This document shows, one piece after another, positions 41,475 to 60,354 of a stretch of DNA of 64,000 bases; positions within the stretch are counted from its first letter, which is position 1; the number at the start of each line of letters is the position of its first letter. The position numbers and the translations under genes were made by a program. The stretch is from a virus. Where the stretch lies: positions 1 to 64,000 of IMG/VR virus record IMGVR_UViG_3300032245_000936, one strand, 5' to 3'. Below the pieces are notes generated by a model, which worked only from the letters and a program-made list of their open reading frames with translations, was not told the DNA's origin and ran no database searches.

Positions 41475-42144
41475 GTATTGTCAACGGCTTGTTGCCGTAC
41501 TCCCAGATACTCAACCATTGCACTTGTTTGCGATGCAGTTCGTCCAGTACCATGTGCGGGAAGAAATTTACATGCGTGTCAGTTTCATGTTCTATGAATA
41601 TACCCAGCTTGTAGTTCAATGGACGAGCTCTGTTGTAGTGTACCCAGCGATTCAGCAAAGTCCAATATACCTGGCCAGTTTCATCAATGTATAGACCTTT
41701 TGCCATGTTGTTGTAGTACGGACCAAAATCAAAATCAAAACTGTTTTCAATTTGACTCAGAAGTTCTACGGTGATATCACCTATGCCAATGGACCTGCGG
41801 GTTGGAAATTCAAAAACAAAAAAGTGTTTGGTCTCTTCGACAAACTTAGGCATGCCCTTGGGTGCGCCAGAGATCACTCTGCGTATCTGGGCCAGACTCT
41901 GTTGTCCACATGGACTACCTTGCCAACCTGGAATATCCACGGCCATAGCTTTTATCAATTCTTTACGTTCTGGCTTTTTCATTTCAGCCATGATCTCTTT
42001 GACATCACCTAATACACTTAGTTCTAGTGCAGGCTTATGATAGTAAATGTTGTCATTGTGCCAAAAGAAATAGTCTAACGCACCCCATTCAAGTTTGTCA
42101 GGCAAATCAATATCAAAATCTTGTTTAAAGTCTGTGTGGATCAT
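41467..42144 (-). CDS. Hypothetical protein, paralog of 38958-39776
   Basis: APKGMPKFVEETKHFFVFE...GQVYWT. Confidence 0.6.
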   Translation of the reverse strand: MIHTDFKQDFDIDLPDKLEWGALDYFFWHNDNIYYHKPALELSVLGDVKEIMAEMKKPERKELIKAMAVDIPGWQGSPCGQQSLAQIRRVISGAPKGMPKFVEETKHFFVFEFPTRRSIGIGDITVELLSQIENSFDFDFGPYYNNMAKGLYIDETGQVYWTLLNRWVHYNRARPLNYKLGIFIEHETDTHVNFFPHMVLDELHRKQVQWLSIWEYGNKPLTIHD

Positions 42145-42949: not shown

Positions 42950-43657
42950 ATGAAATATTCAAAAACTTTGATTTCCTGGATGTTTTACCTGTTCCTGTTG
43001 ACCGTTCCACTGTGGGCAATTGGTGCCAGCTGGACTCAATTTGTCGCATGTTATCTCATGTTCTATTTGTTGTTAAATGGCATTCAGAGTTTGTTTTTGC
43101 ATCGCTGGGCCGCACACGGATCCTGGAATCCACCTGTATGGCTGCAGAACATCTTGGCTACCATTGGTGTGGCTGCATTACTAGGCACACCTATTTCATG
43201 GGCCGCATGGCATAGAACACACCATGCACACAACGACACAGAAAAAGATCCTCATAGTCCTGCCCACAAAAGTTGGTTTTACATTGTGTTTAGGCATCAC
43301 TATCACAGTGCAGAACTCAGACGAGGTATTGATCGTGCGGCTAACAAATATTTCAGATGGCTAGGCAAACACGAAATTGATATTGCTATTGGTGTGTCTT
43401 TAGTACTGTTGGTGCTACTAGGGCCAGTCTGGTTTGCAACACTCTGGGCTGTGCCTGTGGCACTTACTACATTTTGCACTAACTTAGGTGTGAATGTTCT
43501 ATGCCATACGCATGGCAAAGTTAAGAATTATCCACTGCTGTGGCCTGTGGTGTTTGACGAGTGTATGCACAAAGATCATCACGACAATCCTTCGTTGGTA
43601 AACACACCTGTTGATATTATGGCCAAAAGTGTTGTTGCACTAGGTTTGGGCAAATAA
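42950..43657 (+). CDS. Divergent fatty acid desaturase-like protein
   Basis: HRWAAH, HRTHH, DPHSP, HKDHH. Confidence 0.85.
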   Translation: MKYSKTLISWMFYLFLLTVPLWAIGASWTQFVACYLMFYLLLNGIQSLFLHRWAAHGSWNPPVWLQNILATIGVAALLGTPISWAAWHRTHHAHNDTEKDPHSPAHKSWFYIVFRHHYHSAELRRGIDRAANKYFRWLGKHEIDIAIGVSLVLLVLLGPVWFATLWAVPVALTTFCTNLGVNVLCHTHGKVKNYPLLWPVVFDECMHKDHHDNPSLVNTPVDIMAKSVVALGLGK

Positions 43658-43665
43658 ATATTATC

Positions 43666-44196
43666 ATGAGCCAACAACAATTCATTGACAATCTAGTAAA
43701 CAATGTAGACCAGCTGATTGAGGAATATCAGCACAACAAAGCGCAGGGTAGGAAAACATTTGCACTACCCGACTGGAGTCCAGAAAGTGTACCTGTACAA
43801 GAATGGCAGGCTGTTGCGCTCTGGTGGAAATACAAGCCCTGGGCTGTTTATCAAAAGTGGTATCCGTTTACCACTTCATTGGTCAAAGATGGTCCCACAC
43901 ACCGTGCAACAGGTCACTTGATTCTTAAACCGCAGTCCAAGACTCCTAAGCACCGGCACCTAGACTGGGGCAACAAGATTATCCTACACATTCCACTGAT
44001 CATTCCCAAAGGTGATGTTGGATTCTGGATTGATGGTAAAATACATCGATGGAAAGTAGGCGAAGCCTTCGCCTTTGACATTACCAAGGAACACTATGGT
44101 TTCAACAACACTGATCAAGAACGTGTGTTGTTGGTTATGGAATTTGATGCAGAGCTATGGGGCGATACTCTTAGGCAGTACCAGACTCTAGATTGA
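43666..44196 (+). CDS. Asp/Asn beta-hydroxylase-like 2OG-Fe(II) oxygenase
   Basis: L.P.S....H, ILHIPL, WKVGEAFAFD...H...N...ERVLL. Confidence 0.75.
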   Translation: MSQQQFIDNLVNNVDQLIEEYQHNKAQGRKTFALPDWSPESVPVQEWQAVALWWKYKPWAVYQKWYPFTTSLVKDGPTHRATGHLILKPQSKTPKHRHLDWGNKIILHIPLIIPKGDVGFWIDGKIHRWKVGEAFAFDITKEHYGFNNTDQERVLLVMEFDAELWGDTLRQYQTLD

Positions 44197-45016
44197 TTTT
44201 TCGCATACGATTAAAGTATTCAACTTTTTCACGTATTTTGTTGTACTTAGGGTCGCTGATCAAGTGCTCGTGCCAGAAGTAAACATTCTTTAATTCATCA
44301 TCAGTAAACTTGGCAACAGGCGTGTACCATTCACCAATTTGATATTTTTGTACAGGGCGAATAGCACCAGTATCCTCGTGGTAGATTTTGTCTACAATAT
44401 ATTCTTCTAGATAGTATTCGCCTGTTTGCGCTCGCACAGCCAACCAATCTGGATCATGTGCTCCGTTTAGAATCTCTGCAACACCTTTCCACCAGCGTTG
44501 ATAAAATCCACTGTCTTTGCGGGTGATCATGAATCCTGTGTCAAACGGATTGTCCCAACCAGGTTCCAGTGTGCGTTGTTGTTTTGTACAGTAATCATCA
44601 TATTGACCGCAAACTGTTTGTCCACAGTTTACCAACGCCTCGGGCAATGGCTGAATAAGATTCATGTCTAGATCAATCTTAATAAGAACATCAACATCCA
44701 ATCGTTGTTCAAACAACATGCCCACGTAGGGAATGTTTAAAAAACCACTGGTAAAAGTTTCAGTGACAGGATGATATTCTTCAATGTATTCTACATTTAT
44801 TGCTTTGAGTTGATCAATGGTATCTTGACTAATAGTGTTGTGTGTTGGGCACAGAACATATATTGGAATGTCTTTTAACCATCCACCATTTTTGCGCCAG
44901 GCCTCAAAACACAAAATAGCTTCGTCTTCGAACTTTCTTTCAAACTGTACAATGTTCAATTGATTATTCAAGTTCCTGTTGTTGCCTTCAATGGCTGCTA
45001 CCAGTGCATACTTCAT
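44171..45016 (-). CDS. GT-A fold glycosyltransferase-like protein
   Basis: IKIDLDM (DxD), FDTGFMI. Confidence 0.55.
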   Translation of the reverse strand: MKYALVAAIEGNNRNLNNQLNIVQFERKFEDEAILCFEAWRKNGGWLKDIPIYVLCPTHNTISQDTIDQLKAINVEYIEEYHPVTETFTSGFLNIPYVGMLFEQRLDVDVLIKIDLDMNLIQPLPEALVNCGQTVCGQYDDYCTKQQRTLEPGWDNPFDTGFMITRKDSGFYQRWWKGVAEILNGAHDPDWLAVRAQTGEYYLEEYIVDKIYHEDTGAIRPVQKYQIGEWYTPVAKFTDDELKNVYFWHEHLISDPKYNKIREKVEYFNRMRKINLESGTA

Positions 45017-45627
45017 ATAGAGTACTCCTTGAGACAAGGAATATCTCTGGCATCAGGGTATGCTTGCCATGCCCCAATCTTGTAGTCCTGCGTTAGCTGA
45101 TTCAACAGTAATATACCTTTGGCTGCTTCGTCGGGGCTCATGTTCATATGATATCCTAGAGTGATATGCTCCATCTCACTGGCAACTCCTAGCGAGCTAT
45201 CTCTACCATCATGTCGCATACGCTTTAGTGCTTGGTACATTGTATGATCGTCAAGCAGTATTGCTCCACCTTTACCAATTGGCAAACTTTTCTTCTGCTG
45301 GAAACTCAAGCACTGAACTTCGCCAGCACGATACATATTGGGTCTAAACCCCACAGCGTAGTCATACACGTTGGTATTGCCAATTTGATAACTGCCAACC
45401 CATTCTTTATATTCTAACCACACATTGTAGCCATAGTTAATCAGTGTCATGGGAACACTGATGTATGTGTGTGCAGGCAATACTATTTTGGCTTTGCGTT
45501 TCTTTTGATATTCCAATGCCAACAGTATTGCATTGGTACAGCGATCCACTGCCACAGCATAAGGAGCCCCTGTGTACTCGCATAAACGTTGTTCAAATAG
45601 TTCAATAAAATCGTTGTTGTTTTTCAT
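45013..45627 (-). CDS. Short DegT/DnrJ/StrS PLP aminotransferase
   Basis: AVAVDRCTNA, SFQQKKSLPIGKGGA, HDGR, GYHMNM. Confidence 0.85.
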   Translation of the reverse strand: MKNNNDFIELFEQRLCEYTGAPYAVAVDRCTNAILLALEYQKKRKAKIVLPAHTYISVPMTLINYGYNVWLEYKEWVGSYQIGNTNVYDYAVGFRPNMYRAGEVQCLSFQQKKSLPIGKGGAILLDDHTMYQALKRMRHDGRDSSLGVASEMEHITLGYHMNMSPDEAAKGILLLNQLTQDYKIGAWQAYPDARDIPCLKEYSI

Positions 45628-46535
45628 ATGATGTAACGTAGGTCCTTTTTGTTGCAGAGGTCAACTACTGCTCTATCACAATACTTACACACATCATACT
45701 GCATGTTCAAAATTTTATCATAGTCCCCGTCCCAGGGTTTACCCTTGCTGGCTTCTAAAAATAGATAGCATGGATACACCTTGCCATGAATGTCCACTTG
45801 TTGACTTTTGTTTTCCCAGCTCATGCAATAGGCTTTGCCTTTCACTGGACTAGCATACTTGGCTCGAGCAAATTTGTCCATTTGTTCGTAGTCTTGTAGT
45901 TTATGCGGGTTTGGGCGCAGACGTTCAATACCAGAAGTGTCCACGTAGTTGCTTTTGTCTTTGAGCAAAAAGGTTTCAGTCCAATACACATGACTAAACT
46001 CGCTTACCATTTGTTGAAACTCAGGTCCATCAAAATCATCACTGTTGTAATGAAAGCGAATACATTGTGCATAATCGTTTTTGTTTGCGCCACGGAACGC
46101 ACGAGCATTGTCAAGTATGTTTTTTAATTTGGTGTTCTTGCGATACACCTCATGCAGTTCTTGTGTGCTACCGCAGATGCTAAAGTAAACTCTATCATCA
46201 TCTCTCATAAGGGTTGAAAGTTCTGCCCACCATTCAGGCTTGTGCGTATCTCCATTGGTACAAATTTCAATTCGTACATTACGTGCCTTGATGTATCGTA
46301 CAAGCTCAAAAAAATGTTTATACAATGTTGGCTCGCTTATGGTGCCAACAAGCCTGACCCATACTAGATCTGGAAATGTTTCCAACTGTGCAATTACGTC
46401 AGCAATAGGACGCACCAGGTTGTCTGGATAATGCTCTTGGTATACAGTATAGTTTCTGTAACATAACTGACATTGTGCATTACAGAGAGTGGTGAGCTCT
46501 AACTCAATGTCTTCAACTCGAGGCATGGTCAGCAT
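45624..46535 (-). CDS. Radical SAM enzyme, group A (Twitch-like C-terminus)
   Basis: CNAQCQLC, GTISEP, TNG; C..PC..CKYC. Confidence 0.9.
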   Translation of the reverse strand: MLTMPRVEDIELELTTLCNAQCQLCYRNYTVYQEHYPDNLVRPIADVIAQLETFPDLVWVRLVGTISEPTLYKHFFELVRYIKARNVRIEICTNGDTHKPEWWAELSTLMRDDDRVYFSICGSTQELHEVYRKNTKLKNILDNARAFRGANKNDYAQCIRFHYNSDDFDGPEFQQMVSEFSHVYWTETFLLKDKSNYVDTSGIERLRPNPHKLQDYEQMDKFARAKYASPVKGKAYCMSWENKSQQVDIHGKVYPCYLFLEASKGKPWDGDYDKILNMQYDVCKYCDRAVVDLCNKKDLRYII

Positions 46536-47443
46536 ACAAAATCCAGTCCCATTTTTTCTATAAAAGTGCGTGTTCGTTTTTCACACAAGAAACAGTCAGG
46601 AAACTTGAATTTCAAGATGTCGCTATAATCAAAGTCTTCTTCTGCAAAGTAATCTTGTTCAAACTCTGCATGTACATAACAAGCACTTACTTGTCCATAC
46701 TGGTTGATATACACTTTCTTTTGTTCTAGACTGCGGCACTGAATATCATAGGTGTTGCCATCGTCTGGTAGTGGACGATTTGCAAACAGTTGTTTAATAG
46801 TCTTATCTCGCACTGCCATTGGTTTTACATTGATAGGGAATTTCTTTTCATAGTCATTCTTACGTCGGACCCCTTCAGTTTCAACATACATTATGTTAGA
46901 GAACTCGTTGATTATTTGTTGCATTTCAGCTGACTTTAAGTCTTCGCTATTATACTCAAATCGTATATGTTGCATCCAGTCGTTACCTAGACCATTTTTA
47001 CGCACTGCTCTTGCATGTTCAATAATTTGTTGTAGATCACTGCCCACACGATATATTTCATGTAGCTGTTGTGTGCTACCACAGATGGTAAATGCTACCA
47101 TACATTTTTTAGGTATGCGTTTACCCAGTGCCTCCCACCATTTTGCATCGTGAGTGTTGCCGTTGGTAAACAACTCGTAGTAAATATCACGACTGTTCAG
47201 GTAATCAATGAACTCATCAAAGTATTTGTACATTGTGGGCTCGCTTACTGCACCTGCAATAAAGAAACGTTTGAGTCCTGTATATTGATCTAATTGTTTA
47301 ATTACTTCCTCAATTGGTCGTATATTCTTGCCAACTAGATGTTGTGCGTGTGAATAATTGCGAGTGCATAACGGACACTCTAAATTGCACAGACCAGTCA
47401 GGTCCATTTCAATTTCTTCAATCTCAGACTTCTTAACTATCAT
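46529..47443 (-). CDS. Radical SAM enzyme, group A
   Basis: CNLECPLC, GAVSEP; C..AC..CFLC. Confidence 0.9.
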   Translation of the reverse strand: MIVKKSEIEEIEMDLTGLCNLECPLCTRNYSHAQHLVGKNIRPIEEVIKQLDQYTGLKRFFIAGAVSEPTMYKYFDEFIDYLNSRDIYYELFTNGNTHDAKWWEALGKRIPKKCMVAFTICGSTQQLHEIYRVGSDLQQIIEHARAVRKNGLGNDWMQHIRFEYNSEDLKSAEMQQIINEFSNIMYVETEGVRRKNDYEKKFPINVKPMAVRDKTIKQLFANRPLPDDGNTYDIQCRSLEQKKVYINQYGQVSACYVHAEFEQDYFAEEDFDYSDILKFKFPDCFLCEKRTRTFIEKMGLDFVC

Positions 47444-48354
47444 ACCATTCGCTCCATACCGTTGCGTTCTAGTATACTGGTTGTCATGCTTTCGCACTCG
47501 TAACAGAAGTCAAATTCAAACTTGTGAATCTCAGAGTAGTCATTGTGATCAAACGGGGTCTTCTTGTACACCCGATACAAGAAGCAAGGAAACTCTTCTC
47601 CAAATTGGTTTATGCTCAAAAACTTTGTTTCGTAACTTTTGCAACGCATCTTACAACTTGCACCATTGGCATGTCTTTTTAAGATGCTGTTTTTTATTGT
47701 GTTATATTTTTCGCCGAGCTTGCCGTGCATCTTGATTGCTGTGTCTTCTTTGATAATTCCAAACCGCTCTTGGTATGGACTAGAATCAATCAACCATGGA
47801 TTGCTAAACTCTGCGATAATTGCCTTCATTGCATCAGACTCAAGATCTTTTGCATTATATTCAAATCGTATATGCTGGCACCAATCATTACACTTGCCGC
47901 TTTGACGAAATGCTGTTGCATGATCACGTATCTGTTGCAGACTACTGTTAACACGATATACTTCATGTAGCTCTTGTGTGCTACCACAGATAGTAAAGTA
48001 AACTCTATCTGTTGCCGCAAAGATATCACCCAATGCTTTCCACCACTCTGGCTTGTGCGTATTACCGTTTGTATACAGTTCAATTTTAATACCTCGGCCC
48101 ACTAGATATTTTACCAGTGGAACAAAGTCTTTGTACATGGTAGGTTCGCTAACGCTGCCGGCCATGCAAACAAATTTCAGGTTAGGAAATGTGTCAAGTT
48201 GGGTTATCCATTCATCAACAGGTCTGATATTCTTCTGCACTAGATGTTGTGCATTTTCATATGATCGTAGACAGAGAGGGCAGTCTAGGTTACAGGTGCC
48301 TGTAAGCTCTAGCTCAACTTCAAGTATTTCTGCTCTGTCTAATCCTAGTTTCAT
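47440..48354 (-). CDS. Radical SAM enzyme, group A
   Basis: CNLDCPLC, GSVSEP; C..PC..CYEC. Confidence 0.9.
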   Translation of the reverse strand: MKLGLDRAEILEVELELTGTCNLDCPLCLRSYENAQHLVQKNIRPVDEWITQLDTFPNLKFVCMAGSVSEPTMYKDFVPLVKYLVGRGIKIELYTNGNTHKPEWWKALGDIFAATDRVYFTICGSTQELHEVYRVNSSLQQIRDHATAFRQSGKCNDWCQHIRFEYNAKDLESDAMKAIIAEFSNPWLIDSSPYQERFGIIKEDTAIKMHGKLGEKYNTIKNSILKRHANGASCKMRCKSYETKFLSINQFGEEFPCFLYRVYKKTPFDHNDYSEIHKFEFDFCYECESMTTSILERNGMERMV

Positions 48355-48974
48355 AGATAAATTATGCTGTTAAAATCTTTTTCTTTAAAAACACGCTTGA
48401 TTGAGTCTGGCGTCATGCGTTTATGATACATGGTCAACATGCGATGCTTGTTACTATTACTTAACGTCGGACCTGATATACCCAATGGCATTGTAGCGGC
48501 AACCAAATTGAACTGTATGTCAGGGTACTTATCCAAAAATGTGCCCAAACGATCAAAGTTTAAATCTGTGACAATCAGTAGGTACTGCAAATTTATAGTA
48601 GCATCAATGATAATATCGTCATCTAAATTGATGTCTTCACTGCAATGATATAGTATGGTATCAAAACGAGGCAGTAAATCGCGATAGCGTTTGATAAACA
48701 ATCCGTTGGTATTGATACTAGGGCGGCAACCTTTTGCCTCCAATGCGTCTAGTATGTAAACAATGTCCTCACGTTTCATTGTACCAACTTCGCCACCGCT
48801 GAGTGTTACATTATAGCCAGGTATTATTTTATCTATTTTTTCTTTAACCTGATCCATGCCAAGTTTAGGACGATTGTGTGTGTCCACACAGCAATAGTTA
48901 CAATGCCATTGGCATACCCATGTAACCACAAGTTCAATTTCTTTTTCTTTTGCTTGTATTGCCATCAGTGCCAC
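48351..48974 (-). CDS. Minimal radical SAM enzyme, group B
   Basis: CQWHCNYC, GGE, NTNG, YHCSE. Confidence 0.9.
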   Translation of the reverse strand: MALMAIQAKEKEIELVVTWVCQWHCNYCCVDTHNRPKLGMDQVKEKIDKIIPGYNVTLSGGEVGTMKREDIVYILDALEAKGCRPSINTNGLFIKRYRDLLPRFDTILYHCSEDINLDDDIIIDATINLQYLLIVTDLNFDRLGTFLDKYPDIQFNLVAATMPLGISGPTLSNSNKHRMLTMYHKRMTPDSIKRVFKEKDFNSIIYL

Positions 48975-49546
48975 CTTGCCACAACTGTAACAAACTCATC
49001 CAGGCTATATGGATGAACCTTGTGCCCGTGTTGGTTGAAGAAGTCCATCATTAGATTCAAACTAATCTTGCGTTGACTACGTACATCAGGCAACAACAAG
49101 AACTTGATATGAGGATACTTCTCTATCATTTTATGTATGCTTCCATCCAGGAAGTTTGTATTGGTTACTACCAATGCGTAGAACACATGATCTAATTCTA
49201 AATTAGGAAACTCTATGTCGTCGGGCAGATACTCCACGCAATGATAATGTATCTTTCCAAACTCATGTACCAATGGCATGTGTTGCCTGAAGAACAACCC
49301 GTTTGTCAACAGGTCAATTATACAGTTCTTGTCCTTGAGCAGTTTTATTATCAACTCCAACTGCTCACGTTTCAGTAACCCAGGCTCTCCTCCGCCAAAC
49401 GTGACCTCTGTGTCGGGTTCAATGGCCTTTACCCTGCGTAGTACTTCTTCAAAAGGCAGCTCTGGTTGGTTGTGTATATCTGCAACACAATAGTCACAGT
49501 GCCAGTTGCACTTGTTGGTTAAAGGCAATTCAATTTCTTTTTTCAT
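48965..49546 (-). CDS. Minimal radical SAM enzyme, group B
   Basis: CNWHCDYC, GGEPG, LTNG, YHCVE. Confidence 0.9.
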   Translation of the reverse strand: MKKEIELPLTNKCNWHCDYCVADIHNQPELPFEEVLRRVKAIEPDTEVTFGGGEPGLLKREQLELIIKLLKDKNCIIDLLTNGLFFRQHMPLVHEFGKIHYHCVEYLPDDIEFPNLELDHVFYALVVTNTNFLDGSIHKMIEKYPHIKFLLLPDVRSQRKISLNLMMDFFNQHGHKVHPYSLDEFVTVVARWH

Positions 49547-50217
49547 CTCAATGCCTTTAACTTGCGGATATTGTTTACTTCCCAGCAACTGGTAATCAAA
49601 TGTAGATAGCTGTCAGGTGCAATACGATCTTTATACTGATTATATACTTTGAATCCATTGGCTCTGCTCAATCCTTTGCCAATTACATTATCTGCTCCAA
49701 ATACTAAAAATCTGATATCCGGATATTGATTGATATAAAAGTCCAAACGGTGCATGGTATCATCTGTGATTACCAATTGAAAATCAATTTTGGATATATC
49801 AACGTGCTCAGGAATCCAAATGTCATCATTGTCTAAATGTTCACTACAGTGATATAAAAAACTGTCTGGGATATGGCATAGATTTTTGTGTTTTTTAAAA
49901 AATGTTCCATTGGTGTTTACATTAACAAAGCATCCTTTATTCTTTAACTCTGTTAACACCCATTCCATAACAGCATGATCAATGAGCCCTGGCTCGCCAC
50001 CAGTTAATGCAACATCACTGTTTCCTGGTATTGCTTCAACTTTTTGTTTTATGTCATGATAGGTTACATCAGCTCTGTTGTGTGTGTCCTCAGAGCAGTA
50101 GTCGCAGAACCAATTACACTTATAGGTTAGGTACAAGGTATAACTGTTAGCTCCATCAAGTCCTCCTTGAAAGAATTCATAGTTGTCGTGCTTTACTCTT
50201 GGCAATTGATTGCTCAT
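49543..50217 (-). CDS. Minimal radical SAM enzyme, group B
   Basis: CNWFCDYC, GGEPG, NTNG, YHCSE. Confidence 0.9.
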   Translation of the reverse strand: MSNQLPRVKHDNYEFFQGGLDGANSYTLYLTYKCNWFCDYCSEDTHNRADVTYHDIKQKVEAIPGNSDVALTGGEPGLIDHAVMEWVLTELKNKGCFVNVNTNGTFFKKHKNLCHIPDSFLYHCSEHLDNDDIWIPEHVDISKIDFQLVITDDTMHRLDFYINQYPDIRFLVFGADNVIGKGLSRANGFKVYNQYKDRIAPDSYLHLITSCWEVNNIRKLKALR

Positions 50218-51266
50218 TTGTAAAACCCTTTTCTATAAAAATTTACCTGTGTGATTTTTTCACCCGGAGCCGGAGTCAGTACCACATCTTTGATCTGTTT
50301 CTCAACACCATCACAGATGTAATAATGTTTACACTCTAAGCAGTCCTTGGTTTTATAGTATGTGCGGTTGCGTTTGAATGCGGCTGCATCATACATGGCC
50401 TTGAGTGGATCAGCGCGATATGTTTCAGGATCGATGTCACCATTGTATACCGCAATATTCCAATCATATACATCATAGATATGTTGATAATAATTGCAAA
50501 CGTATTGTTCATAGCCTGTCATGAAGCAATAAGGTGTGTACCTTACGTTGATTTTTTTAACTTGATCTTTTAACAAATCAATGGCCTGATGTACATAAGG
50601 TGTAACTTCAGCGTAGTTGATAGTGTCTTGTTTGCCAGCATCGTCCCAATAGTTGAGAGTGAGAAAGTTCACTTCAAAGGGTTGTAGTTCTTGCATCAGT
50701 GCCACAAACTTTGTGGGCAAGGATTTGTAGTTCCGGTGAGTCACTGTGCAATTAACACGAACCAAAATGCCTAACTCATGTGCATTGTGTATGGCCTGGA
50801 CAATATTTTCAAAGCCCTTGCGATGACCTACTAATATGTTGTGAGACTCTTTGTCATAACCATGTACACTAAATAGGATTTCTTCTAGTCCGTGTTCTTT
50901 TGATTTTGCTAAGAATTCTTTATTGGCAAATTTGTACCCATTGCTCAGTGTACTGATTTTCAATCCATGCCCGCGGCAGTAGTCTAGTATATCAAACCAT
51001 TGCTTGTGAATACTGCTTTCTCCACCACTAAGGTCTACTTCTTTAATTCCACAAGCAATCAAATAATCAATGCGTTCTTTTATTTTTTCAAACTCAGTTA
51101 CTTCATCAAGCTGTGTTTTGTAATAGCAGAACTCACAACGATAGTTGCAATGTGTGCCAGTGTCTAGTTTGGCACGATTGCACATAGGCTCGTTACTATC
51201 AATCTGTAACTTATTGCTCAGCTCGTTGTATAGTCTCACGTTCAATCTCTTGGTATTGTTGGTCAA
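50214..51266 (-). CDS. Radical SAM enzyme with C-terminal CxxC-x5-C cluster motif
   Basis: CNYRCEFC, GGES; PYC...CLECKHYYICDG; start uncertain. Confidence 0.9.
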   Translation of the reverse strand: MTNNTKRLNVRLYNELSNKLQIDSNEPMCNRAKLDTGTHCNYRCEFCYYKTQLDEVTEFEKIKERIDYLIACGIKEVDLSGGESSIHKQWFDILDYCRGHGLKISTLSNGYKFANKEFLAKSKEHGLEEILFSVHGYDKESHNILVGHRKGFENIVQAIHNAHELGILVRVNCTVTHRNYKSLPTKFVALMQELQPFEVNFLTLNYWDDAGKQDTINYAEVTPYVHQAIDLLKDQVKKINVRYTPYCFMTGYEQYVCNYYQHIYDVYDWNIAVYNGDIDPETYRADPLKAMYDAAAFKRNRTYYKTKDCLECKHYYICDGVEKQIKDVVLTPAPGEKITQVNFYRKGFYK

Positions 51267-52056
51267 TTGGCTCTGGATCAGCCTGATATTTCTTTTTACT
51301 TGCCACCATCAATTTAAATGATGACACCGATTCTTTATAACAAGTCCTACTAAAACTACTGCAATGATTTAAACATATACTTTGGCTATCAAAGAACTTG
51401 TATCTAATAGGGTGCTCTAATGCTTCCTTTAGTGACACTGTGTTTAGATTTGCAAAGGCCAACTTATCATTATAAGGAACATTGTCTTTTACGAACTTAC
51501 AAAACATCACATCACCATTGGCCAATATCTTGGGCATACTGTGAAAATGGCATTTGAGTTTAGAGTTGAATTCTTCGTTTATTTTTGTGCCGGTGTAATT
51601 GAAAACATAGTTTCGATCGCGGCGCTCTAGGTTGTAACGTATACCGGCTGCATCAAGTTCATCAATTCGACGATGCACAATATCAAATAAATTTTTATCC
51701 ATGCCGGTTAGCTCTTTGAACTTTTCTGGAGTGTCACCATAATAACTGATACAGAATTTAATATTGGTCATACCAATTTTTTTCAGCTTCTCTACATTCA
51801 CTGCGGTTACATTGGTAAACACAATGGTGTATTTCATATGCGTGTTTACAAAATCAAGCATTTCATAAATGTCAGGATGCAGGAATGGTTCGCCTTTTGC
51901 AGGAATCAAATCAACTTCTGTTATGCCCATTGCCTTTGCTTCTAAAATAATTCTTTTGAATAATTCTAGATCCATATACTGCGGCTCGGTGATATCTTTG
52001 GCTTTGCAAAAATAGCATTTGAAATTGCAATACTCAATGATTTCTACCACTATCAT
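51211..52056 (-). CDS. Radical SAM enzyme (Twitch/SPASM-like)
   Basis: CNFKCYFC, GEPFLHP; C..GDVMFC..CLNHC. Confidence 0.9.
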   Translation of the reverse strand: MIVVEIIEYCNFKCYFCKAKDITEPQYMDLELFKRIILEAKAMGITEVDLIPAKGEPFLHPDIYEMLDFVNTHMKYTIVFTNVTAVNVEKLKKIGMTNIKFCISYYGDTPEKFKELTGMDKNLFDIVHRRIDELDAAGIRYNLERRDRNYVFNYTGTKINEEFNSKLKCHFHSMPKILANGDVMFCKFVKDNVPYNDKLAFANLNTVSLKEALEHPIRYKFFDSQSICLNHCSSFSRTCYKESVSSFKLMVASKKKYQADPEPIDQQYQEIERETIQRAEQ

Positions 52057-52946
52057 ATTATGCCTTTAAGGATGTCCACTATCTCATCATTGGGCTTTAG
52101 ATGGATGCTGTCAAACTTATAGTCAATATCCCAGCGTCTCCAATACAGTCCTAGATCTTCTGCCCAGTAATCTATATCATGATAAATTACCTCTTTGCTG
52201 TAGTATTTACATTCGGCTATGAAACGAGGCGAACAATCCCACTTTCTTTCAACTGGAGTGTACACATACGTGGTAAACTGTTCAAACAGATTGTCTACTG
52301 GTGGAAGTATAAACGTAATTCCAGTCACTGGAGTTGGTTGATTTTCTGCATTGGTAATTGCAACAATAGGTTTATTGTATCTTGCAAAGTCTGCCCAATC
52401 TTTTATATTGCGGCAGTTTTTGGTGGCATACAGCAATATTTGATTTTTGCTTTCGCCAATGGTTTTTAGTCGACTAAAGAGTATTTTCTTTTTATAGTTG
52501 ATTCCGTTGGTTTTGACAGGATCATACACACGGTCGTCTTGTAAGATGTAGACGTTGTGTTTATCATTGTCTTTGATCTCTTTGTTTCCGCAAGCAAAGA
52601 AGATGATGTTGTCAAATAACAGCGTGTACTCTTGTGCATTTACAATACCTCCGTCTGTAAATAAAATATTACGGCCACGTAACAAACTAGGGCGATTGCC
52701 GAACACAGTATGTGCGCGAATATCGGCAATTTCATGATCTGTAAAATCATACTTGTTTCTAATACTTCTCTCAACGGTTTGCCAATCAATATCTTCTCCT
52801 AAAAAAATTCCCACTTTAAAATGATCTTTGAGTACGTGATAGTAGTCAAATACTTCAAAGGTATGTCCACACACGCCGTGATTGTTGTTGCTCCAGGTAT
52901 AGCTGAGCCAGAGATCGTACGAAGGATCTAATTGTATTATTTTCAT
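52053..52946 (-). CDS. Hypothetical protein, possible GT-B-like; paralog of 52943-53731
   Basis: HGVCGHTFEVFDYY; DCSPRFIAECKYYSKEV. Confidence 0.5.
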   Translation of the reverse strand: MKIIQLDPSYDLWLSYTWSNNNHGVCGHTFEVFDYYHVLKDHFKVGIFLGEDIDWQTVERSIRNKYDFTDHEIADIRAHTVFGNRPSLLRGRNILFTDGGIVNAQEYTLLFDNIIFFACGNKEIKDNDKHNVYILQDDRVYDPVKTNGINYKKKILFSRLKTIGESKNQILLYATKNCRNIKDWADFARYNKPIVAITNAENQPTPVTGITFILPPVDNLFEQFTTYVYTPVERKWDCSPRFIAECKYYSKEVIYHDIDYWAEDLGLYWRRWDIDYKFDSIHLKPNDEIVDILKGII

Positions 52947-53731
52947 CTGAGCATTGCCTTTACCATTACATCATCTTGTGTCAGTGTGTAATTAGTCAGT
53001 CCGTTTTGTTTGATATCATTGTAGCGTAGCATGATTGAATCTACACCTGTATAGACTTCTTCTACTGTGACTTGTTTATTGTAATAAAATCCCTCAGGGA
53101 TGATTCGATTGTTGCTGTCTCGTACCACATGTATATAATGCACTGCATCAATCAATTCAAACAAGTTGCCTACTCCAGTGTGTTGCTTCTTTAGTATAAT
53201 TGGTCGATTGAACTGTTTCTTTAATCGTTCATATTCAAATCGAATAAACTGTGGGTCCAGACAACTCACAAACACGCCAGGTGCTGAAGTTGTTAGCTGT
53301 GGGAATATTTCAAAGTTTAATTTTAGATAGCAGAACACATCGTAGTATTGAAAATCATAGCTTCCGTAGTAGGTTACAGATCTTTGATTGCGGTAGCGGA
53401 ACCATTCGTGTTCTTCGTTGCTAAAACAATGTACTTCGTTGGTGAAAAACTCTCGGCATTGACGAAATGTATCAACATCCAGTACCAGAGTTCTGTCTAG
53501 ATCAAGTTGATAGAGTTCGGTGAGTTTGATTGGAACAATGCCGTCTGTGAAAATTTGATATTTTTGAGAAAGTATGTTTGCGACGAGGCGAAGATCGCCT
53601 TCTGTTATGCCTATAACATAAAATTGAACATCAGTATATTTTTGTAAAAACTTAAAATATTCAAAGCAGTAAAACAGAGTTCCGTTGATCTTGTTATGTG
53701 GTTTGTGTTTGTACACCACTCCAAGTTTCAT
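52943..53731 (-). CDS. Hypothetical protein, possible GT-B-like; paralog of 52053-52946
   Basis: KINGTLFYCFEYF; DSNNRIIPEGFYYNKQV. Confidence 0.5.
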   Translation of the reverse strand: MKLGVVYKHKPHNKINGTLFYCFEYFKFLQKYTDVQFYVIGITEGDLRLVANILSQKYQIFTDGIVPIKLTELYQLDLDRTLVLDVDTFRQCREFFTNEVHCFSNEEHEWFRYRNQRSVTYYGSYDFQYYDVFCYLKLNFEIFPQLTTSAPGVFVSCLDPQFIRFEYERLKKQFNRPIILKKQHTGVGNLFELIDAVHYIHVVRDSNNRIIPEGFYYNKQVTVEEVYTGVDSIMLRYNDIKQNGLTNYTLTQDDVMVKAMLR

Positions 53732-53732
53732 A

Positions 53733-54371
53733 TTAAAATCTTGCGTAGAAGTCTTCTAAAAAGTTTTGTTCTATTGTTTTAACTTCTTCTTGTGTGTTAG
53801 ACAATTTAATTGCAGTGCGGAATGCACTGAACTTTCTTTCTAGCTGTGCCACAGATTCAATTTCATCTTTGTAGTTTAGATAATCTTCTAACTTGGTAAT
53901 CAGTTTCTCGTCGCCGGTTTCAAGTATTTCCAAATACTTTTCTTCACGGTTGTCATTGGTGATGAAATATCCAGCATTGGCTAGATCGTTGTTGAGCATG
54001 ATAAATCCATACATGGTCAGCCCAGCAATCTTGGAAAGCTCTGGTGTAATCAACATGCGAATTTTTATCATGGCTGCATTTCTTGCTTCCTGGAGAGGGT
54101 CTGTTTCCATAAGGTCAATGACCTCAAACTCCCCGGGCAATACTTCCGTGGTTCTGAGAGTTTTACTGATATGAATAGTTTTGTTTTCAACCACTGCTTT
54201 TTTCATCATCTCAGCACTCATGTAACTGAGTTTGAGATATTTTTCTTGGTGGTCCGCCGGGGCATCTAATGTGTTGTTGACCACATTAGTTACCCGGTAG
54301 TAAGTGCCGCAGTCAATGACGTGGGCCAGATCGTAAAGCATTGTCATAATTGATTCCTCATTGTATACCAA
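53733..54371 (-). CDS. Hypothetical protein, possible fibre-assembly chaperone
   Basis: Directly follows the Cys-rich fibre-like gene; helical C-terminus IKLSNTQEEVKTI resembles DUF4376-type endings. Confidence 0.4.
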   Translation of the reverse strand: MVYNEESIMTMLYDLAHVIDCGTYYRVTNVVNNTLDAPADHQEKYLKLSYMSAEMMKKAVVENKTIHISKTLRTTEVLPGEFEVIDLMETDPLQEARNAAMIKIRMLITPELSKIAGLTMYGFIMLNNDLANAGYFITNDNREEKYLEILETGDEKLITKLEDYLNYKDEIESVAQLERKFSAFRTAIKLSNTQEEVKTIEQNFLEDFYARF

Positions 54372-54373
54372 AT

Positions 54374-55042
54374 TCAGATTGGTAAGAGTTTATAGTTCAC
54401 CATGTAAAATCCGCGAGCATCCTTCTTTAATGCTTGTTCATGTTTGGTTCCAACTAGTTCTTGAGCAATAACGCCAACATACTCTGTGGCTTTGTCCCAG
54501 ATATATGTCCAAGAATAGATATTCAGACCATTGCGTGTTTCAATGAACTTGATGTTTTCTTTGAGACGTTGATCACTGTAGTTACAACCGCAGTCGTTGT
54601 GACAACTACAAACGTTGTTACAGGAGCAGTCTGAATTACAAATACAATCTTGGCGAATTACATCGTAACGTGCTTTGAGCTCCGTCCAATGAGTAATCTG
54701 TACCTTTGTGCCTGCGGCCAGCGAAGCCGGAACTGTGGTCAGATATGCTACCATAGTACGAAGATTGTTGTATTGTCCTGACGTGGCTGTGGTTGCGCCC
54801 GGTGAAAATGCAGTTCCCTCATACAATGTGTATGGGCCGTAATCGCCATGAGAATCATAACGAGCAATCTCGTCACGAATACTGCTACGTAATAAATTTA
54901 TATCTGCGGCTGTTACCTTACCACCTTGAGCCCATTCATTACTCATGGTAATGGCTCTGTTAGTAGAGCAGCCAGGACGGTGATTTGAACAGGATGATGT
55001 GCCTGTTCCGTGGTCAGTGCAGTGTGAACCAGAGCATGCCAT
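54374..55042 (-). CDS. Cys-rich fibre-like protein with C-terminal Peptidase_S74 autocleaving chaperone domain
   Basis: N-terminal Cys/His cluster; three G..(V/T)x(A/I)...(N/T).L(R/K) repeats; CICNSDCSCNNVCSCHNDCGC; then SDQRLKENI...GVIAQE...VNY. Confidence 0.8.
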   Translation of the reverse strand: MACSGSHCTDHGTGTSSCSNHRPGCSTNRAITMSNEWAQGGKVTAADINLLRSSIRDEIARYDSHGDYGPYTLYEGTAFSPGATTATSGQYNNLRTMVAYLTTVPASLAAGTKVQITHWTELKARYDVIRQDCICNSDCSCNNVCSCHNDCGCNYSDQRLKENIKFIETRNGLNIYSWTYIWDKATEYVGVIAQELVGTKHEQALKKDARGFYMVNYKLLPI

Positions 55043-55046
55043 TTGG

Positions 55047-56222
55047 TTAAGTTCCTTCCATTTCTAATTGTTTTGCTTTTTCAGTAACAACTTGTAATTC
55101 GTTGTCAAGGTAGGATTGAACGGTTCTATCAATTTCACCAAATGCCTTAAAAAAGCCACACATGTTGTTTACCCAACGATCAGTCCAACGATCGAAGTAA
55201 TCTTCTTTTTTGCTATTGTCTAAACTGGACACTGGGCAAATCATACAAGTCGTAGCAACACAGCCTTTGCAAATATCTGAAACTGTACGAATTGGAATGC
55301 TGTATGTTTCACTCATCTTGGCTACGTCGTCAACAAAACTGTCTTGGTCAATACTACTGCCTCTCATGAGTTCTTTGTTTGGACTGTACAAAGATCCATG
55401 GCAAGCATAGCTTTGTCCATCAACGTCAATGGCGTGCATGTTGGCACCAGACGCACAGTGTACTTTTGTGTCGCCGCCGTCAAACCATGACATCAAATGA
55501 TGATTGTGCTCACGATAGAATTTGATTTCTTCTCGCGCAACCATTAACATTTCTTTTCTAAAATCTTCAATCATCTTAGGCAAGTCGCCAGATGGAATCT
55601 CATTCACATAATCAATTGTAGGAGCATAGGTCACTGTGATATTTCTACCAATGCTGTTTAGACGTTGGTGTAAATCACGGAAGTCTAACCAAGTCTTGTA
55701 AAGACCAGTCATGCTCTTGAGAGGAATGGTGCTTTTCAATGAGATGTTAATACCTTTACGTGCAAAGTATTCAATGTTCTCTACCACTGTGGAGCTGGTT
55801 GGTTTACCAGTGTGAGTTAAACGGAATTTGTCATTGATGTCTTTTCCGTCGTAACTGATTTGAATCTGTAGTTTGCTAGTATCTACTGCATCAAAAATAT
55901 CTTCTAGGCGCTTGCGGTTATAACCATTGGTGTAGATATGAAATTCAATCTCAGGATACTCATTGAATTCATTCATTACATCAATAATCATTTTACCATT
56001 TAGTGTTGGCTCACCACCCCAGAAGCTGATGTTCAAGCTGTCATATTTGTTGCGGAACCAAGGTGACTTTCTTAGTTCGTGAATACGCTGTTTAACTAGA
56101 TCTAGTTTGTCGTCTAGACGTTGTTTGTTGGTCTTCACACCCTCAAAGCAATAGGTGCAACCCAAGTTGCACAAAGCAGTGGTGGTGATTTCGATAGTAA
56201 ATTGTCCTAAACGTTCATTCAT
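55047..56222 (-). CDS. Radical SAM/SPASM maturase
   Basis: CNLGCTYC, FWGGEP, ISYDG; CASG..ACH..CKGC..CMICP..C. Confidence 0.92.
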   Translation of the reverse strand: MNERLGQFTIEITTTALCNLGCTYCFEGVKTNKQRLDDKLDLVKQRIHELRKSPWFRNKYDSLNISFWGGEPTLNGKMIIDVMNEFNEYPEIEFHIYTNGYNRKRLEDIFDAVDTSKLQIQISYDGKDINDKFRLTHTGKPTSSTVVENIEYFARKGINISLKSTIPLKSMTGLYKTWLDFRDLHQRLNSIGRNITVTYAPTIDYVNEIPSGDLPKMIEDFRKEMLMVAREEIKFYREHNHHLMSWFDGGDTKVHCASGANMHAIDVDGQSYACHGSLYSPNKELMRGSSIDQDSFVDDVAKMSETYSIPIRTVSDICKGCVATTCMICPVSSLDNSKKEDYFDRWTDRWVNNMCGFFKAFGEIDRTVQSYLDNELQVVTEKAKQLEMEGT

Positions 56223-56452
56223 TGTGTGTCTTTCCCCATGGTCATAATTTCATCTAAAATGCTCATCATACGATCATCTGAAACTTTTTCTTCTTCAGGT
56301 TGAATAATCAACGCCATTTCAGCTGCCATGTGTAAAAGTTTATCGGATTCGTCCTGAAATTCTTGCACATTTGACAAGTGTTTGGATGCTTCCAGTAGAT
56401 GATTGCTGGCATAAAACAGCGCCTTGTTCATCTTTTTAATGCTAGTTGACAT
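56219..56452 (-). CDS. Small helical protein between two SPASM enzymes
   Basis: GAGG RBS; overlaps both neighbours. Confidence 0.65.
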   Translation of the reverse strand: MSTSIKKMNKALFYASNHLLEASKHLSNVQEFQDESDKLLHMAAEMALIIQPEEEKVSDDRMMSILDEIMTMGKDTQ

Positions 56453-57449
56453 TCTCAATTTCCTCTTTAAGTTGTTGTATAAAGTACGGATTGCTACCTA
56501 GCTCTTGTGACATCCTACTTACTTGCCTGTAAGTGTATTTATATATGCTACAGAGCTCCACGATAGGACCTTTGTTTTTGATTTGCTCAAATAAACAGCC
56601 TTTTTCGCAGTAGTTTTTTACTTCGCAGGATTGACACTCGGGCATTTGTGCATATTTGGGTATTTCTGCAATCAGCTCGGGTGCTTTGGTAAAACGTGTG
56701 CAGGGCACAATCTTGTTGTCGCTGAACATGAATATGTCTGTTCCTGCGCCGCAGTTGTGTTTTTCTAATCCTTTAACTTTGTAATTTAAAAAATGGCGAA
56801 GATAAAATGTGATGAAAAACGGCATCTGCTCATGCGGATTTGCGATGTACCAATCAAACAGTTCTTCGATACCTGCTTTGAGTTTTTCCACACTAGCAGA
56901 ATCCCATACATCAACGTCACGTACCAGCGTAAGCTCTGGATTCACTCCAAAGTGCTTTTTTATAAACAAATGATTTTCCAATAGGTTATAGCAACCCTTG
57001 TAAATCATTGTGTGCATACGTAGGTTGGGTATCTGTTTGAATAGATCTGCTTTTTCTAAAAATCTATGTGAGGTTTTGCGACCGTTTAACTGTAGCCTAT
57101 ATTTGTCTTGCCACAGTCCGTCAAAACTCACAGATGTTTCAATTTGTTCTTTAACTAGGTACTCCAGTATTTCATCTGTTAACAACAACCCATTCGTGGG
57201 CATGAATAATTTTACATTGCCATCTTCACGTACACCATCTACTATACGCTGAATCAAATCAAATTGCAACAGGGGCTCACCCCCAAAAAAATCAATCTTG
57301 ATACGTTCAGTCGGGTGTTGTTCCCGCATCTTTCGAAACTCATCAAGATACATGTCTACATCAATGGCTTTTTTGCTCCATTTATCCACGTCACAGTAGG
57401 TGCAATTTAGATTGCACTTTTCTGAAAGGACCACAAGCAAGGTTTTCAT
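56442..57449 (-). CDS. Radical SAM/SPASM maturase
   Basis: CNLNCTYC, FFGGEPLL, VSFDG; CGAG..PC..CQSC..CEKGC..C. Confidence 0.92.
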   Translation of the reverse strand: MKTLLVVLSEKCNLNCTYCDVDKWSKKAIDVDMYLDEFRKMREQHPTERIKIDFFGGEPLLQFDLIQRIVDGVREDGNVKLFMPTNGLLLTDEILEYLVKEQIETSVSFDGLWQDKYRLQLNGRKTSHRFLEKADLFKQIPNLRMHTMIYKGCYNLLENHLFIKKHFGVNPELTLVRDVDVWDSASVEKLKAGIEELFDWYIANPHEQMPFFITFYLRHFLNYKVKGLEKHNCGAGTDIFMFSDNKIVPCTRFTKAPELIAEIPKYAQMPECQSCEVKNYCEKGCLFEQIKNKGPIVELCSIYKYTYRQVSRMSQELGSNPYFIQQLKEEIENVN

Positions 57450-58183
57450 TTTCTATAGATCTCGTTTAATTTTAATACAGTATTTAAGAGCTCTATGTCA
57501 AACATATCTGCTAGTGCTTTTGTATCTTTAGGCAAGCACGGGCCACCAAAGCCTCGCTGGCCATCTGGGCCCGGAACTTGAAAATGATGTGTGCCCATCC
57601 ATGGCTGCATTTTTAACACATCAACGATACTGTTGTAGTCAGCGCCCAGCTCATTGGCAACATCATATATGGCATTCATGTATGTTACTTTGAGTGCATA
57701 AAAACTGTTCATTGTGTATTTGGCCAATGCCGCAGTTTTTATGTCTGTGAATTTTACTGTGCTCATGTTCACATCAGAGTATTTGCGATACAGATCTGCC
57801 ACACGCTGAGTTTTGTCTGTGTCACCACCTAGTAGTACAAAAGGCGGGTTAATAAAATCATCTGCGGCTGTTGCACGGCTTAAAAACTCGGGGTTGTAAA
57901 CAATGTCGTATTGTTCTAGCACATGTGGAAGTGCTGTGCTTTTTACAACAACAATTCCTTGGTAATTGGTACTTTTAATACGTTCCAATGTTTCACGTAG
58001 TATTTGATAGTTGCTATGATCAGTAGGAGTAGGCACACATACAAAAACAGCGTCAGGATTTTCCCCACACATATATTCTATGCTGAGATCGTTGTATGCA
58101 GGGTCAGAGAGCATCACTGCGGTTTTACTAAACCCAGTTGCCACCGCCTTGCCAACCATTCCGTAACCAATTATTCCGATCAT
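57446..58183 (-). CDS. ugd: UDP-glucose/GDP-mannose 6-dehydrogenase family, C-terminally truncated
   Basis: GYGMVG, CVPTP, KST, NPEFL, GFGGPCLPKD. Confidence 0.88.
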   Translation of the reverse strand: MIGIIGYGMVGKAVATGFSKTAVMLSDPAYNDLSIEYMCGENPDAVFVCVPTPTDHSNYQILRETLERIKSTNYQGIVVVKSTALPHVLEQYDIVYNPEFLSRATAADDFINPPFVLLGGDTDKTQRVADLYRKYSDVNMSTVKFTDIKTAALAKYTMNSFYALKVTYMNAIYDVANELGADYNSIVDVLKMQPWMGTHHFQVPGPDGQRGFGGPCLPKDTKALADMFDIELLNTVLKLNEIYRK

Positions 58184-58199
58184 GAGTTCTTTCGTAGAA

Positions 58200-58238
58200 A
58201 CAGGTGTTATTGTAGCAAAACAACAACACCTGTGTCAA
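58200..58238 (-). promoter_or_regulatory. Promoter of the radical SAM operon, with 18-bp box copy 3 and an inverted repeat
   Basis: TTGACA(58238-33)-18bp-TACAAT(58214-09); TGTAG-CAAAACAA-CAACA at 58211-28; ACAGGTGTT/AACACCTGT at 58200-08 and 58225-33. Confidence 0.7.
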
Positions 58239-60315: not shown

Positions 60316-60354
60316 GTGCCTTAAACTCCAAGTTAAAGTTATTTATTTTCATAA

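Follow-up and report, generated by a model that had tools for sequence, protein, structure and literature searches.

Why does a single phage operon hold ten radical S-adenosylmethionine (rSAM) enzymes, and on what do they act? The question is raised by the IMG/VR virus record IMGVR_UViG_3300032245_000936, in which 18 consecutive open reading frames (ORFs) lie on the minus strand at 44171-58183. The first 64 kb of this 112,657-bp record are called the window here. CheckV gives the record a completeness of 32%, and therefore the phage genome is probably very large. Within the operon, two rSAM enzymes with SPASM domains are encoded directly upstream of a 222-amino-acid (aa) protein that carries an array of cysteines next to a Peptidase_S74 domain. 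This pairing of enzyme and array recurs in many large phages, which makes it probable that the viruses subject one of the proteins in their particles to chemical modification. In the explanation that we prefer, and whose chances we judge to be evenly poised, the SPASM pair cross-links the Cys array of a virion protein, glycosylation and the other rSAM genes are add-on modules, and the operon is the largest version found here of a phage-specific protein-maturation cassette.

Neighboring ORFs of the operon overlap by 4-58 nucleotides (nt) or sit 1-4 nt apart. Ten of the 18 have a CxxxCxxC motif within residues 1-47 in a motif scan, and all ten match Pfam Radical_SAM (PF04055, cut-off 29.5 bits), nine of them at 33-71 bits and the tenth, 48351-48974, at 27.0 bits, just under the cut-off. 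The ORF motif scan of the whole 112-kb record found no other ORF with an rSAM motif and no other ORF with a Cys array. The complete seven-Cys SPASM motif, tested as Cx9-15Gx4C ... CxxCx5Cx3C ... C, is present in both 56442-57449 and 55047-56222, and the seven SPASM Cys of 55047-56222 are invariant in 14 homologues. The array gene, 54374-55042, begins 5 nt past the stop codon of 55047-56222. A first-pass annotation, made from the letters alone, had described 18 contiguous minus-strand genes downstream of tail-fibre genes, ten intact rSAM enzymes and two SPASM-type enzymes directly upstream of a 222-aa, 12-Cys protein with an S74 domain, and all of this was confirmed by the ORF listing, the PHROG and Pfam matches and the seven-Cys motifs. 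The one promoter that it placed ahead of the operon corresponds to a consensus match at 58238-58209, which falls within the 68 nt that separate the fibre gene from the first gene of the operon.

The Cys-array protein is conserved very unevenly along its length. The array reads C-I-C-N-S-D-C-S-C-N-N-V-C-S-C-H-N-D-C-G-C and is followed by N-Y and then by S-D-Q-R-L-K, which opens the S74 domain. In an alignment of 91 sequences the eight array Cys, N136, N142, Y155, S156, D157 and K161 are invariant, and D138 and D150 are always D or N. Position +3 is occupied by Asn or Asp for six of the array's eight Cys. At the N-terminus C18, H21, R22 and C25 are at least 90% conserved. Relative to the window protein, identity averages 83% in the array, 63% in the N-terminus, 58% in the S74 domain and only 31% in the middle. 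A profile search of 5.8 billion proteins gave 485 relatives; among the matches listed, the array is kept in 120/120 and SDxRxK in 117/120. None of the NCBIfam and Pfam models covers the Cys arrays, and tblastn of the protein against GenBank phages found no match. AlphaFold2 predicts a helical middle domain (residues 30-132) and the S74 domain with pLDDT >90, and both Cys clusters with pLDDT <50. An invariant array beside a hypervariable middle domain may point to a function in particle stability or in recognizing the host.

The S74 domain resembles those of phage tail fibres and spikes of the endosialidase type, since it scores above the Pfam cut-off and the Ser/Lys dyad (S156 and K161) of its SDxRLK motif is invariant. 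Cleavage is predicted to leave a mature C-terminus ending in CGCNY, and the array thus abuts the self-cleavage site directly. The differences are that the window domain is carried by a very small protein with a Cys array as the last residues before the cut, and that some relatives of the window protein keep only a stub of 12-13 residues or no domain.

The association of enzyme and array was found from both directions, which is the database check that the first-pass annotation had proposed. Seeding with the S74/array pattern in IMG/VR gave 80 loci. In about 20 of them the S74 protein bears a CxC array, and homologues of the operon rSAM and other genes are present in every one of these. About 55 have array-less S74 tail fibres, and these have no operon homologues nearby, apart from one weak match. 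When the seed was an alignment of only the SPASM enzyme 55047-56222, 79 IMG/VR loci were obtained, with 24-78% identity. A regular expression found a CxC-array ORF a few kb downstream of the rSAM gene in 58/79, usually right after its stop codon, and inspection added seven loci with variant arrays. An adjacent gene with a C-terminal Cys array is therefore present in 65/79 loci, so that absence of the Cys-rich gene from homologous rSAM clusters is not common. The same regular expression matched 8/3017 ORFs in 941 kb of control loci, all of them antisense junk. The link between enzyme and array is strong.

The arrays fall into families: type A, CxCNxD-like, as in the window; type B, with CxC-N/D/Q-C-N-Y heptads; and rarer kinds such as CHSN repeats. 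Array type follows the rSAM tree (FastTree), with 9 label changes compared with 22-31 in shuffles. This agreement points to long joint descent of array and rSAM and is not proof of interaction, because relatives share labels. Among 185,579 species-representative GTDB genomes no type A array was found, and the type B DNA pattern was found in two contigs only, both from metagenome-assembled genomes. The cassette appears to be phage-specific and essentially absent from cellular genomes.

Many array proteins stop just after the array or retain only a 12-13-residue stub, SDxxLKxxIxYM or more generally SDxxLKxxIxY(M/I/L). Those of loci L054, L100, L129 and L131 end after the array and so mimic the cleaved form. 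Because of these short forms, the array at the C-terminal end is taken to be the constant feature, and a full S74 domain would be one way of producing that end. Several loci have 2-4 tandem array genes (L141 four, L156 three), which makes these genes precursor-like, as in clusters for peptides that are made by ribosomes and modified post-translationally (RiPPs). The stop and start codons of the tandem genes abut in L141:13801-16365, L156:9501-11558 and L113:11134-12278. Two further array proteins differ in composition. At L119:11142-11645, downstream of a 33%-identical SPASM enzyme, a 167-aa protein ends in CHSN/CHSD tetrapeptide repeats, a CXXX-type array at the same genomic position as the CxC arrays. 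At L022:9419-10207 (= L139:13779-14567) an array protein has 33 Cys, with a type B array and a Cys-rich N-terminal region of 130 residues.

A cultured counterpart is found in the Campylobacter group II phages (Firehammervirus). These phages are T4-like and have 11-12 rSAM genes of unexplained role, and in CP220 five of the rSAM genes make up a "central module" (Timms et al. 2010, PMC2853527). No GenBank phage was matched by the operon in a megablast search. At the protein level, 50214-51266 has homologues with 47-52% identity only in this group among 50,697 GenBank phage records, and CP220 (NC_027997) has homologues of 13/18 operon proteins. These homologies fit the window phage being an uncultured T4-like phage. 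The CP220 protein gp136 is a homologue of 55047-56222 (28% identity, 7e-43). Located 2.2 kb upstream of gp136, gp140 has 534 aa and 35 Cys and bears a type B array of six tandem CTC[DN]CNY units. It came to light only through a Cys-motif scan of the CP220 ORFs; a profile search with the array protein had matched nothing in that genome. In the rSAM tree gp136 groups with L112, whose adjacent array best matches gp140, and gp140 is conserved in 15/15 Firehammervirus records. Judged by sequence, gp136/gp140 is the cultured counterpart of the enzyme-array pair of the window.

The orthologue of gp140 in phage IBB_35, gene 3-9, is 94% identical, with the same length and the same neighbors. Gene 3-9 is listed in the table of virion structural proteins identified by electrospray ionization tandem mass spectrometry (ESI-MS/MS) (PMC3322345, supplementary), whereas the 53733-like gene 2-36 of IBB_35, whose homologue in CP220 is gp015, is not in that table (PMC3322345). 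For the window's own protein the listing of gene 3-9 is indirect evidence. CP220, CPt10, IBB_35 and CP21 are like the window phage in being T4-like and in having many rSAM genes and an array protein, gp140. They differ in that their genes are scattered and that gp140 has 534 aa, a type B array and no S74 domain. In the papers on Campylobacter phages the rSAM genes were read as metabolic helpers and gene 3-9 as hypothetical, without homologues (PMC2853527, PMC3322345). CP220 also encodes two proteins of 123 and 141 aa with 27 Cys each, at 24206-24577 and 138106-138531 (L009:24206-24577, L008:10723-11148), which consist of (CxxCxx)n hexapeptides and match no Pfam family. The second of these genes is two genes upstream of gp163, and its product may represent another type of Cys-repeat protein linked to rSAM enzymes.

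The context of the array proteins also bears on two other roles. With ten rSAM enzymes that need clusters and reductant, a Cys-rich protein in the same predicted operon might be an electron carrier or Fe-S scaffold for them. We consider this improbable, since the array protein has no ferredoxin-type CxxCxxCxxxC motif, arrays are also borne by proteins of 426 aa and 534 aa, and an S74 domain, a hypervariable middle and the virion presence of the CP220-group counterpart are ill-suited to a housekeeping carrier. Release of a RiPP-like toxin or signaling peptide, for example a cleaved Cys-rich fragment, would be in keeping with the RiPP-like architecture and its tandem precursors. It is very improbable in our view, because the setting in a tail-fibre module, the S74 domain and the counterpart in IBB_35 virions do not suit it, and the operon has no exporter, leader peptidase or immunity gene. 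The first-pass annotation had likewise seen no exporter or separate leader peptidase, and Pfam and family scans of the operon proteins found no such family.

The relatives of the SPASM enzymes suggest what their chemistry might be. The top NCBIfam matches of both are the PapB ranthipeptide maturase, CcpM, QhpD, SCIFF, CXXX-repeat and Cys-every-fifth maturases. For the PapB family (NF047865, cut-off 340 bits), 56442-57449 scores 101 bits (5e-29) and 55047-56222 scores 89 bits (3e-25), so that the pair is related to this family without belonging to it. The scores for the QhpD family (TIGR03906, cut-off 453) were 79 bits (2.8e-22) and 60 bits (2e-16). The cut-offs of the CrpC family (TIGR04463, about 50 bits against 525) and of the CXXX-repeat maturases (TIGR04115, about 52 bits against 350) were not reached either. 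The nearest solved structure for both enzymes is that of the thioether-forming maturase CteB (5WGG/5WHY), with 9e-25 for 55047-56222 and 4e-13 for 56442-57449. The alignment of 55047-56222 starts at CteB residue 101 and spans the rSAM core and the SPASM domain, and alignments to CteB and to other families that bear a RiPP recognition element (RRE) begin at about position 100 of those proteins. Therefore the phage enzymes are without the leader-binding RRE.

The ranthipeptide/SCIFF systems CteB/CteA and PapB/PapA share with the phage pair the best structure and family matches and an adjacent gene for a Cys-rich substrate. CteA and PapA are short leader-plus-core peptides that are released, whereas the window substrate would be a mature protein of 155 aa with a folded middle, probably part of the virion. 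The phage enzymes also differ from CteB and PapB in scoring well under the cut-offs and in having no RRE. QhpD, which serves maturation of the gamma-subunit of quinohemoprotein amine dehydrogenase, is a SPASM rSAM enzyme whose Cys-to-Asp/Glu cross-links are made in a protein subunit and not in a free peptide. The likeness to QhpD/QhpC is that TIGR03906 is among the top matches of the phage enzymes, but the scores are far below the cut-off and the phage locus has no amine dehydrogenase context.

The closest published precedent is CrpC/CrpA. CrpC, a SPASM rSAM enzyme of Methanococcus voltae, installs ranthionine thioethers in the C-terminal Cys repeats of CrpA (Dieter et al. 2026, PMC13692751), in which C-X-X-Q/D motifs are highlighted (PMC13692751). 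As in the phages, a SPASM gene is located beside the gene of a full-size protein with C-terminal Cys repeats, and C-X-X-(D/Q) in CrpA compares with C-x-x-N/D in the window. The viral cassette differs from this archaeal, cellular system in several ways: CrpC bears an RRE at its N-terminus, the repeat of CrpA is 17 residues long, and CrpA is without an S74 domain. In the phages, unlike in CrpC/CrpA, 2-3 SPASM enzymes come together with a conserved helper and a protein with a GT-B glycosyltransferase fold. In the literature we found no description of Cys-array proteins paired with rSAM enzymes in phages.

In the mechanism that we propose, the SPASM enzymes 56442-57449 and 55047-56222 would act on the 222-aa protein encoded just downstream and modify its Cys clusters covalently. 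The likeliest chemistry would be the formation of a Cys-to-carbon thioether of ranthionine or sactionine type to the residues at +3, because that position holds Asn or Asp for six of the array's eight Cys. The S74 domain would trimerise the protein and cleave itself off after Tyr155, so that a small component of the virion (tail) would have the modified array as its C-terminal tip. The protein 53733-54371 would serve as a dedicated adaptor or helper, a sugar would be added or supplied by the GT-B transferase together with the enzymes resembling Ugd and DegT, and the remaining seven rSAM enzymes would be accessory modules. The fuller picture is that SPASM enzymes staple within or between chains at the array tip of a self-cleaving trimeric tail protein, and that the GT-B protein and up to eight more rSAM enzymes decorate it. 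We hold this only tentatively, at less than an even chance, and this multi-step RiPP-style maturation of a virus particle protein would, if true, be new for any virus.

The same arrays might be metal or Fe-S sites on the axis of a trimeric tip, with the SPASM enzymes loading the cluster or acting elsewhere. The tip of the long tail fibre of T4 carries HxH iron sites, CxC sets both thiols on one strand face, and a period of 6 or 7 residues would fit a triple beta-helix in which each chain contributes one turn. Low AlphaFold2 confidence in the arrays is also what would be expected if a ligand or a trimer were needed. Three of the rSAM paralogues weakly resemble the "tungsten cofactor oxidoreductase maturase", and many Cys-rich proteins ligate metal cofactors (Dieter et al., PMC13692751). 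We regard metal binding as rather unlikely, because it leaves the invariant Asn/Asp at +3 from Cys unexplained, the nearest relatives of the adjacent enzymes are peptide thioether synthases and not cluster-assembly enzymes, and tandem precursor-like copies suit a substrate.

Gene recurrence was counted in 54 full-length loci from the rSAM seed (Table 1), in which low counts are partly due to flanks of 10 kb. Recurrence with the array protein is limited to the Ugd-like gene, the two SPASM enzymes, 53733-54371, the GT-B protein and the rSAM enzyme 50214-51266. Both rSAM triplets, 44171-45037 and the DegT-like gene are accessory. The first-pass annotation had seen the whole operon as built around the Cys protein, and this is too broad, since only part of the genes recur with the array. 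In CP220 the central module (70.6-75.4 kb) matches the triplet of about 300 aa and 51211-52056 of the window and is followed by three 44171-like genes, and it lies far from the array gene gp140.

This separation leaves room for reading the operon mainly as a small-molecule or sugar pathway. The rSAM enzymes would tailor a nucleotide sugar from the Ugd-like and DegT-like enzymes, and transferases would attach it to virion proteins, DNA or a host structure, the Cys protein being only a glycosylation target or a syntenic passenger. The rSAM triplets, the DegT-like and the 44171-like genes form a CP220 module away from the array gene. The GT-B fold protein, the Ugd-like and DegT-like genes and weak glycosyltransferase leads for 52943-53731 are also in keeping with such a pathway, and the authors of the IBB_35 study comment on carbohydrate-metabolism genes (PMC3322345). 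It would not account for SPASM enzymes that stay beside arrays in loci without Ugd, GT-B or DegT genes, and Ugd and DegT are truncated. We consider it unlikely as the main role of the operon. For the accessory half, a sugar pathway may be compatible with cross-linking of the array by the SPASM pair.

Several observations weigh against cross-linking of a virion protein by the SPASM pair. The rSAM family scores are all far below the curated NCBIfam cut-offs, the N-terminal RRE is absent from both SPASM enzymes, and family scans recognised no RRE-like protein in the operon. The CxC spacing is unlike characterised ranthipeptide and sactipeptide cores, and Cys arrays on a threefold axis could bind metals. 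Only two or three of the ten rSAM enzymes are consistently linked to arrays, and seven are not. Part of the co-occurrence may come from shared ancestry of the phage lineages, yet enzyme identities drop to 25-30%. In CP220 the homologues are scattered round the genome and do not form one operon, gp140 resembles the window protein only in and just before the array, and the sequence coverage of gene 3-9 in the IBB_35 virion table is only 2.6% (PMC3322345). The middle domain of the window protein has no fibre-like fold match in Foldseek and VIA-wide searches (best Z 7.0, in the noise range for helical models), and the description of the Cys protein as fibre-like in the first-pass annotation was not upheld, because the middle is predicted to be helical, with no recognisable fibre fold. 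Every chemical step, the formation of a trimer and the position of the window protein in the particle are things that we infer. The same annotation had proposed RiPP-like chemistry, possibly with glycosylation, on a virion appendage. Conservation of the enzyme-array pair in phages that have diverged widely, the thioether-maturase relatives, the GT-B protein in the core and the Campylobacter counterpart in virions are in line with this proposal, and the modification itself is the part that we infer.

Table 1. Features of the operon and its surroundings in the window; the last column gives the number of the 54 rSAM-seeded loci with a homologue
Feature	Position	Strand	Evidence or remark	Loci (of 54)
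Two tail-fibre-like genes, 687 and 923 aa (context)	58252..63126	-	Tail-fibre PHROG matches	35 (fibre-like gene sharing the C-terminal ~150 aa of 58252-60315, upstream of the cassette)
Sigma-70-like promoter match TTGACA-18-TACAAT	58209..58238	-	TG before -10; 11/12 consensus positions; consensus match only	
Truncated UDP-glucose/GDP-mannose dehydrogenase-like protein (Ugd-like), 245 aa	57446..58183	-	N-terminal and central domains; GGPCLPKD catalytic-Cys motif	28
rSAM/SPASM enzyme 1, 335 aa	56442..57449	-	CxxxCxxC at residue 12; SPASM Cys 233, 250, 272, 275, 281, 285, 300	45
79-aa acidic protein between the two SPASM genes	56219..56458	-	No Cys; no family match; only with type A arrays	9
rSAM/SPASM enzyme 2, 391 aa	55047..56222	-	CxxxCxxC at residue 18; SPASM Cys 256, 274, 318, 321, 326, 329, 355	
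Cys-array protein, 222 aa, 12 Cys	54374..55042	-	N-terminal Cys cluster, variable helical middle, C-terminal array, S74 domain	
N-terminal Cys cluster, residues 1-25 (C3, C8, C18, C25)	54968..55042	-	MACSG...C..HR..C; alignment	
(CxCxxx)3CxC array, residues 133-153	54584..54646	-	Eight Cys invariant in 91/91 sequences	
Peptidase_S74 intramolecular-chaperone domain (PF13884), residues 156-222	54377..54577	-	Pfam 30 bits against a cut-off of 22	
212-aa helical protein, no family assignment	53733..54371	-	C-terminal ~130 aa follow the array gene	48
262-aa protein, no family assignment	52943..53731	-		19
GT-B fold glycosyltransferase-like protein, 297 aa	52053..52946	-	AlphaFold2 pLDDT 90.8; Foldseek top matches all GT-B transferases	37
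rSAM enzyme with partial SPASM, 281 aa	51211..52056	-	Pfam SPASM 21.1 bits, just below cut-off	
rSAM enzyme, 350 aa, best conserved operon gene	50214..51266	-	48% identical to CP220 gp163	35
Triplet of small paralogous rSAM enzymes, 224, 207 and 207 aa	48351..50217	-	33-38% mutual identity	6-14
Triplet of ~300-aa paralogous rSAM enzymes	45624..48354	-	34-45% mutual identity; each with a C-terminal 5-Cys auxiliary motif	6-14
Short DegT/DnrJ/EryC1-like protein, 204 aa, about half the usual size	45013..45627	-	Pfam 76 bits against a cut-off of 19.8	3
288-aa protein	44171..45037	-	phrog_23758; three paralogues in the CP220 central module	3

Among the other operon genes, the Ugd and DegT assignments of the first-pass annotation hold for family likeness and not for full-size enzymes. 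The Ugd-like protein is without the C-terminal UDP-binding domain and ends at about position 300 of enzymes of 390-490 aa; it has a 27% identical homologue in CP220, gp019. In the DegT-like protein the SFxxxK Lys aligns, and about 90 central profile positions are missing, compared with a full pyridoxal-phosphate (PLP) fold of about 360-400 aa. It has full-length homologues with 43-49% identity in L120, L124 and L151. The half-size lengths are kept in relatives (243-249 aa for the Ugd-like and about 200 aa for the DegT-like proteins), and because of this the truncation appears to be a stable feature and not decay.

Three proteins had been called glycosyltransferase-like, and this was sustained for 52053-52946 through its predicted GT-B fold, whereas 52943-53731 and 44171-45037 have no family assignment. 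With VIA-align, 52053-52946 reached Z 15.5 with 258/297 residues aligned and an rmsd of 3.7, and the top matches include protein O-GlcNAc transferases. It has no sequence-family match, its PDB profile search was empty, and it has a homologue in CP220 at 121571-122308. For 52943-53731 the Atlas lead (GT1 or DUF2827, score 0.89) remains a weak lead only, and the protein was not assigned as a glycosyltransferase. The protein 53733-54371 is a candidate for a dedicated chaperone or adaptor, with 451 representative clusters of relatives in a profile search. Pfam scans of its longer or fused relatives were unhelpful, its PDB profile search was empty, and the Atlas leads to DUF4376 or a tail assembly chaperone are too weak to use. 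Of the NCBIfam models, the "tungsten cofactor oxidoreductase rSAM maturase" matches the triplet of about 300 aa best, with scores far under its cut-off. The 79-aa protein 56219-56458 has no similarity to CP220 gp022.

Around the operon, tail-fibre PHROG matches were found for both upstream genes, 58252-60315 and 60355-63126. The T4 late-promoter motif TATAAATA is not enriched in the window, with 2 matches against 2.8 expected; one TATAAATA match is located inside the operon at 56536-56543 on the minus strand, 78 nt upstream of the 79-aa gene. On the plus strand, 43666-44196 encodes a 176-aa cupin resembling Asp/Asn beta-hydroxylases (Pfam Asp_Arg_Hydrox, 5e-19), which is convergent with the end of the operon and overlaps its last gene by 26 nt. 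It was tempting to count this gene as a member of the system, given the invariant Asn/Asp, but the related loci examined contain no homologue and it was set aside. Next to it, 42141-42896 on the minus strand and 42950-43657 on the plus strand form a divergent pair of the fatty-acid-desaturase family (Pfam FA_desaturase 1.5e-18 and 2.4e-11); among the related loci examined a similar pair is found only in L034.

Our study adds the type A array family, the largest operon found here, the two-way co-occurrence counts and the gp136/gp140 counterpart together with its proteomic detection in IBB_35. The same pair is present in cultured phages of the CP220 group, whose array protein has already been detected in particles, and therefore the system is directly testable. 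If the explanation that we prefer is true, it could account for the excess of rSAM genes in Campylobacter group II phages that was noted in 2010. Assembly of the virion would then involve radical SAM RiPP chemistry in a wide range of large phages, and structural virology would gain a new class of post-translational modification.

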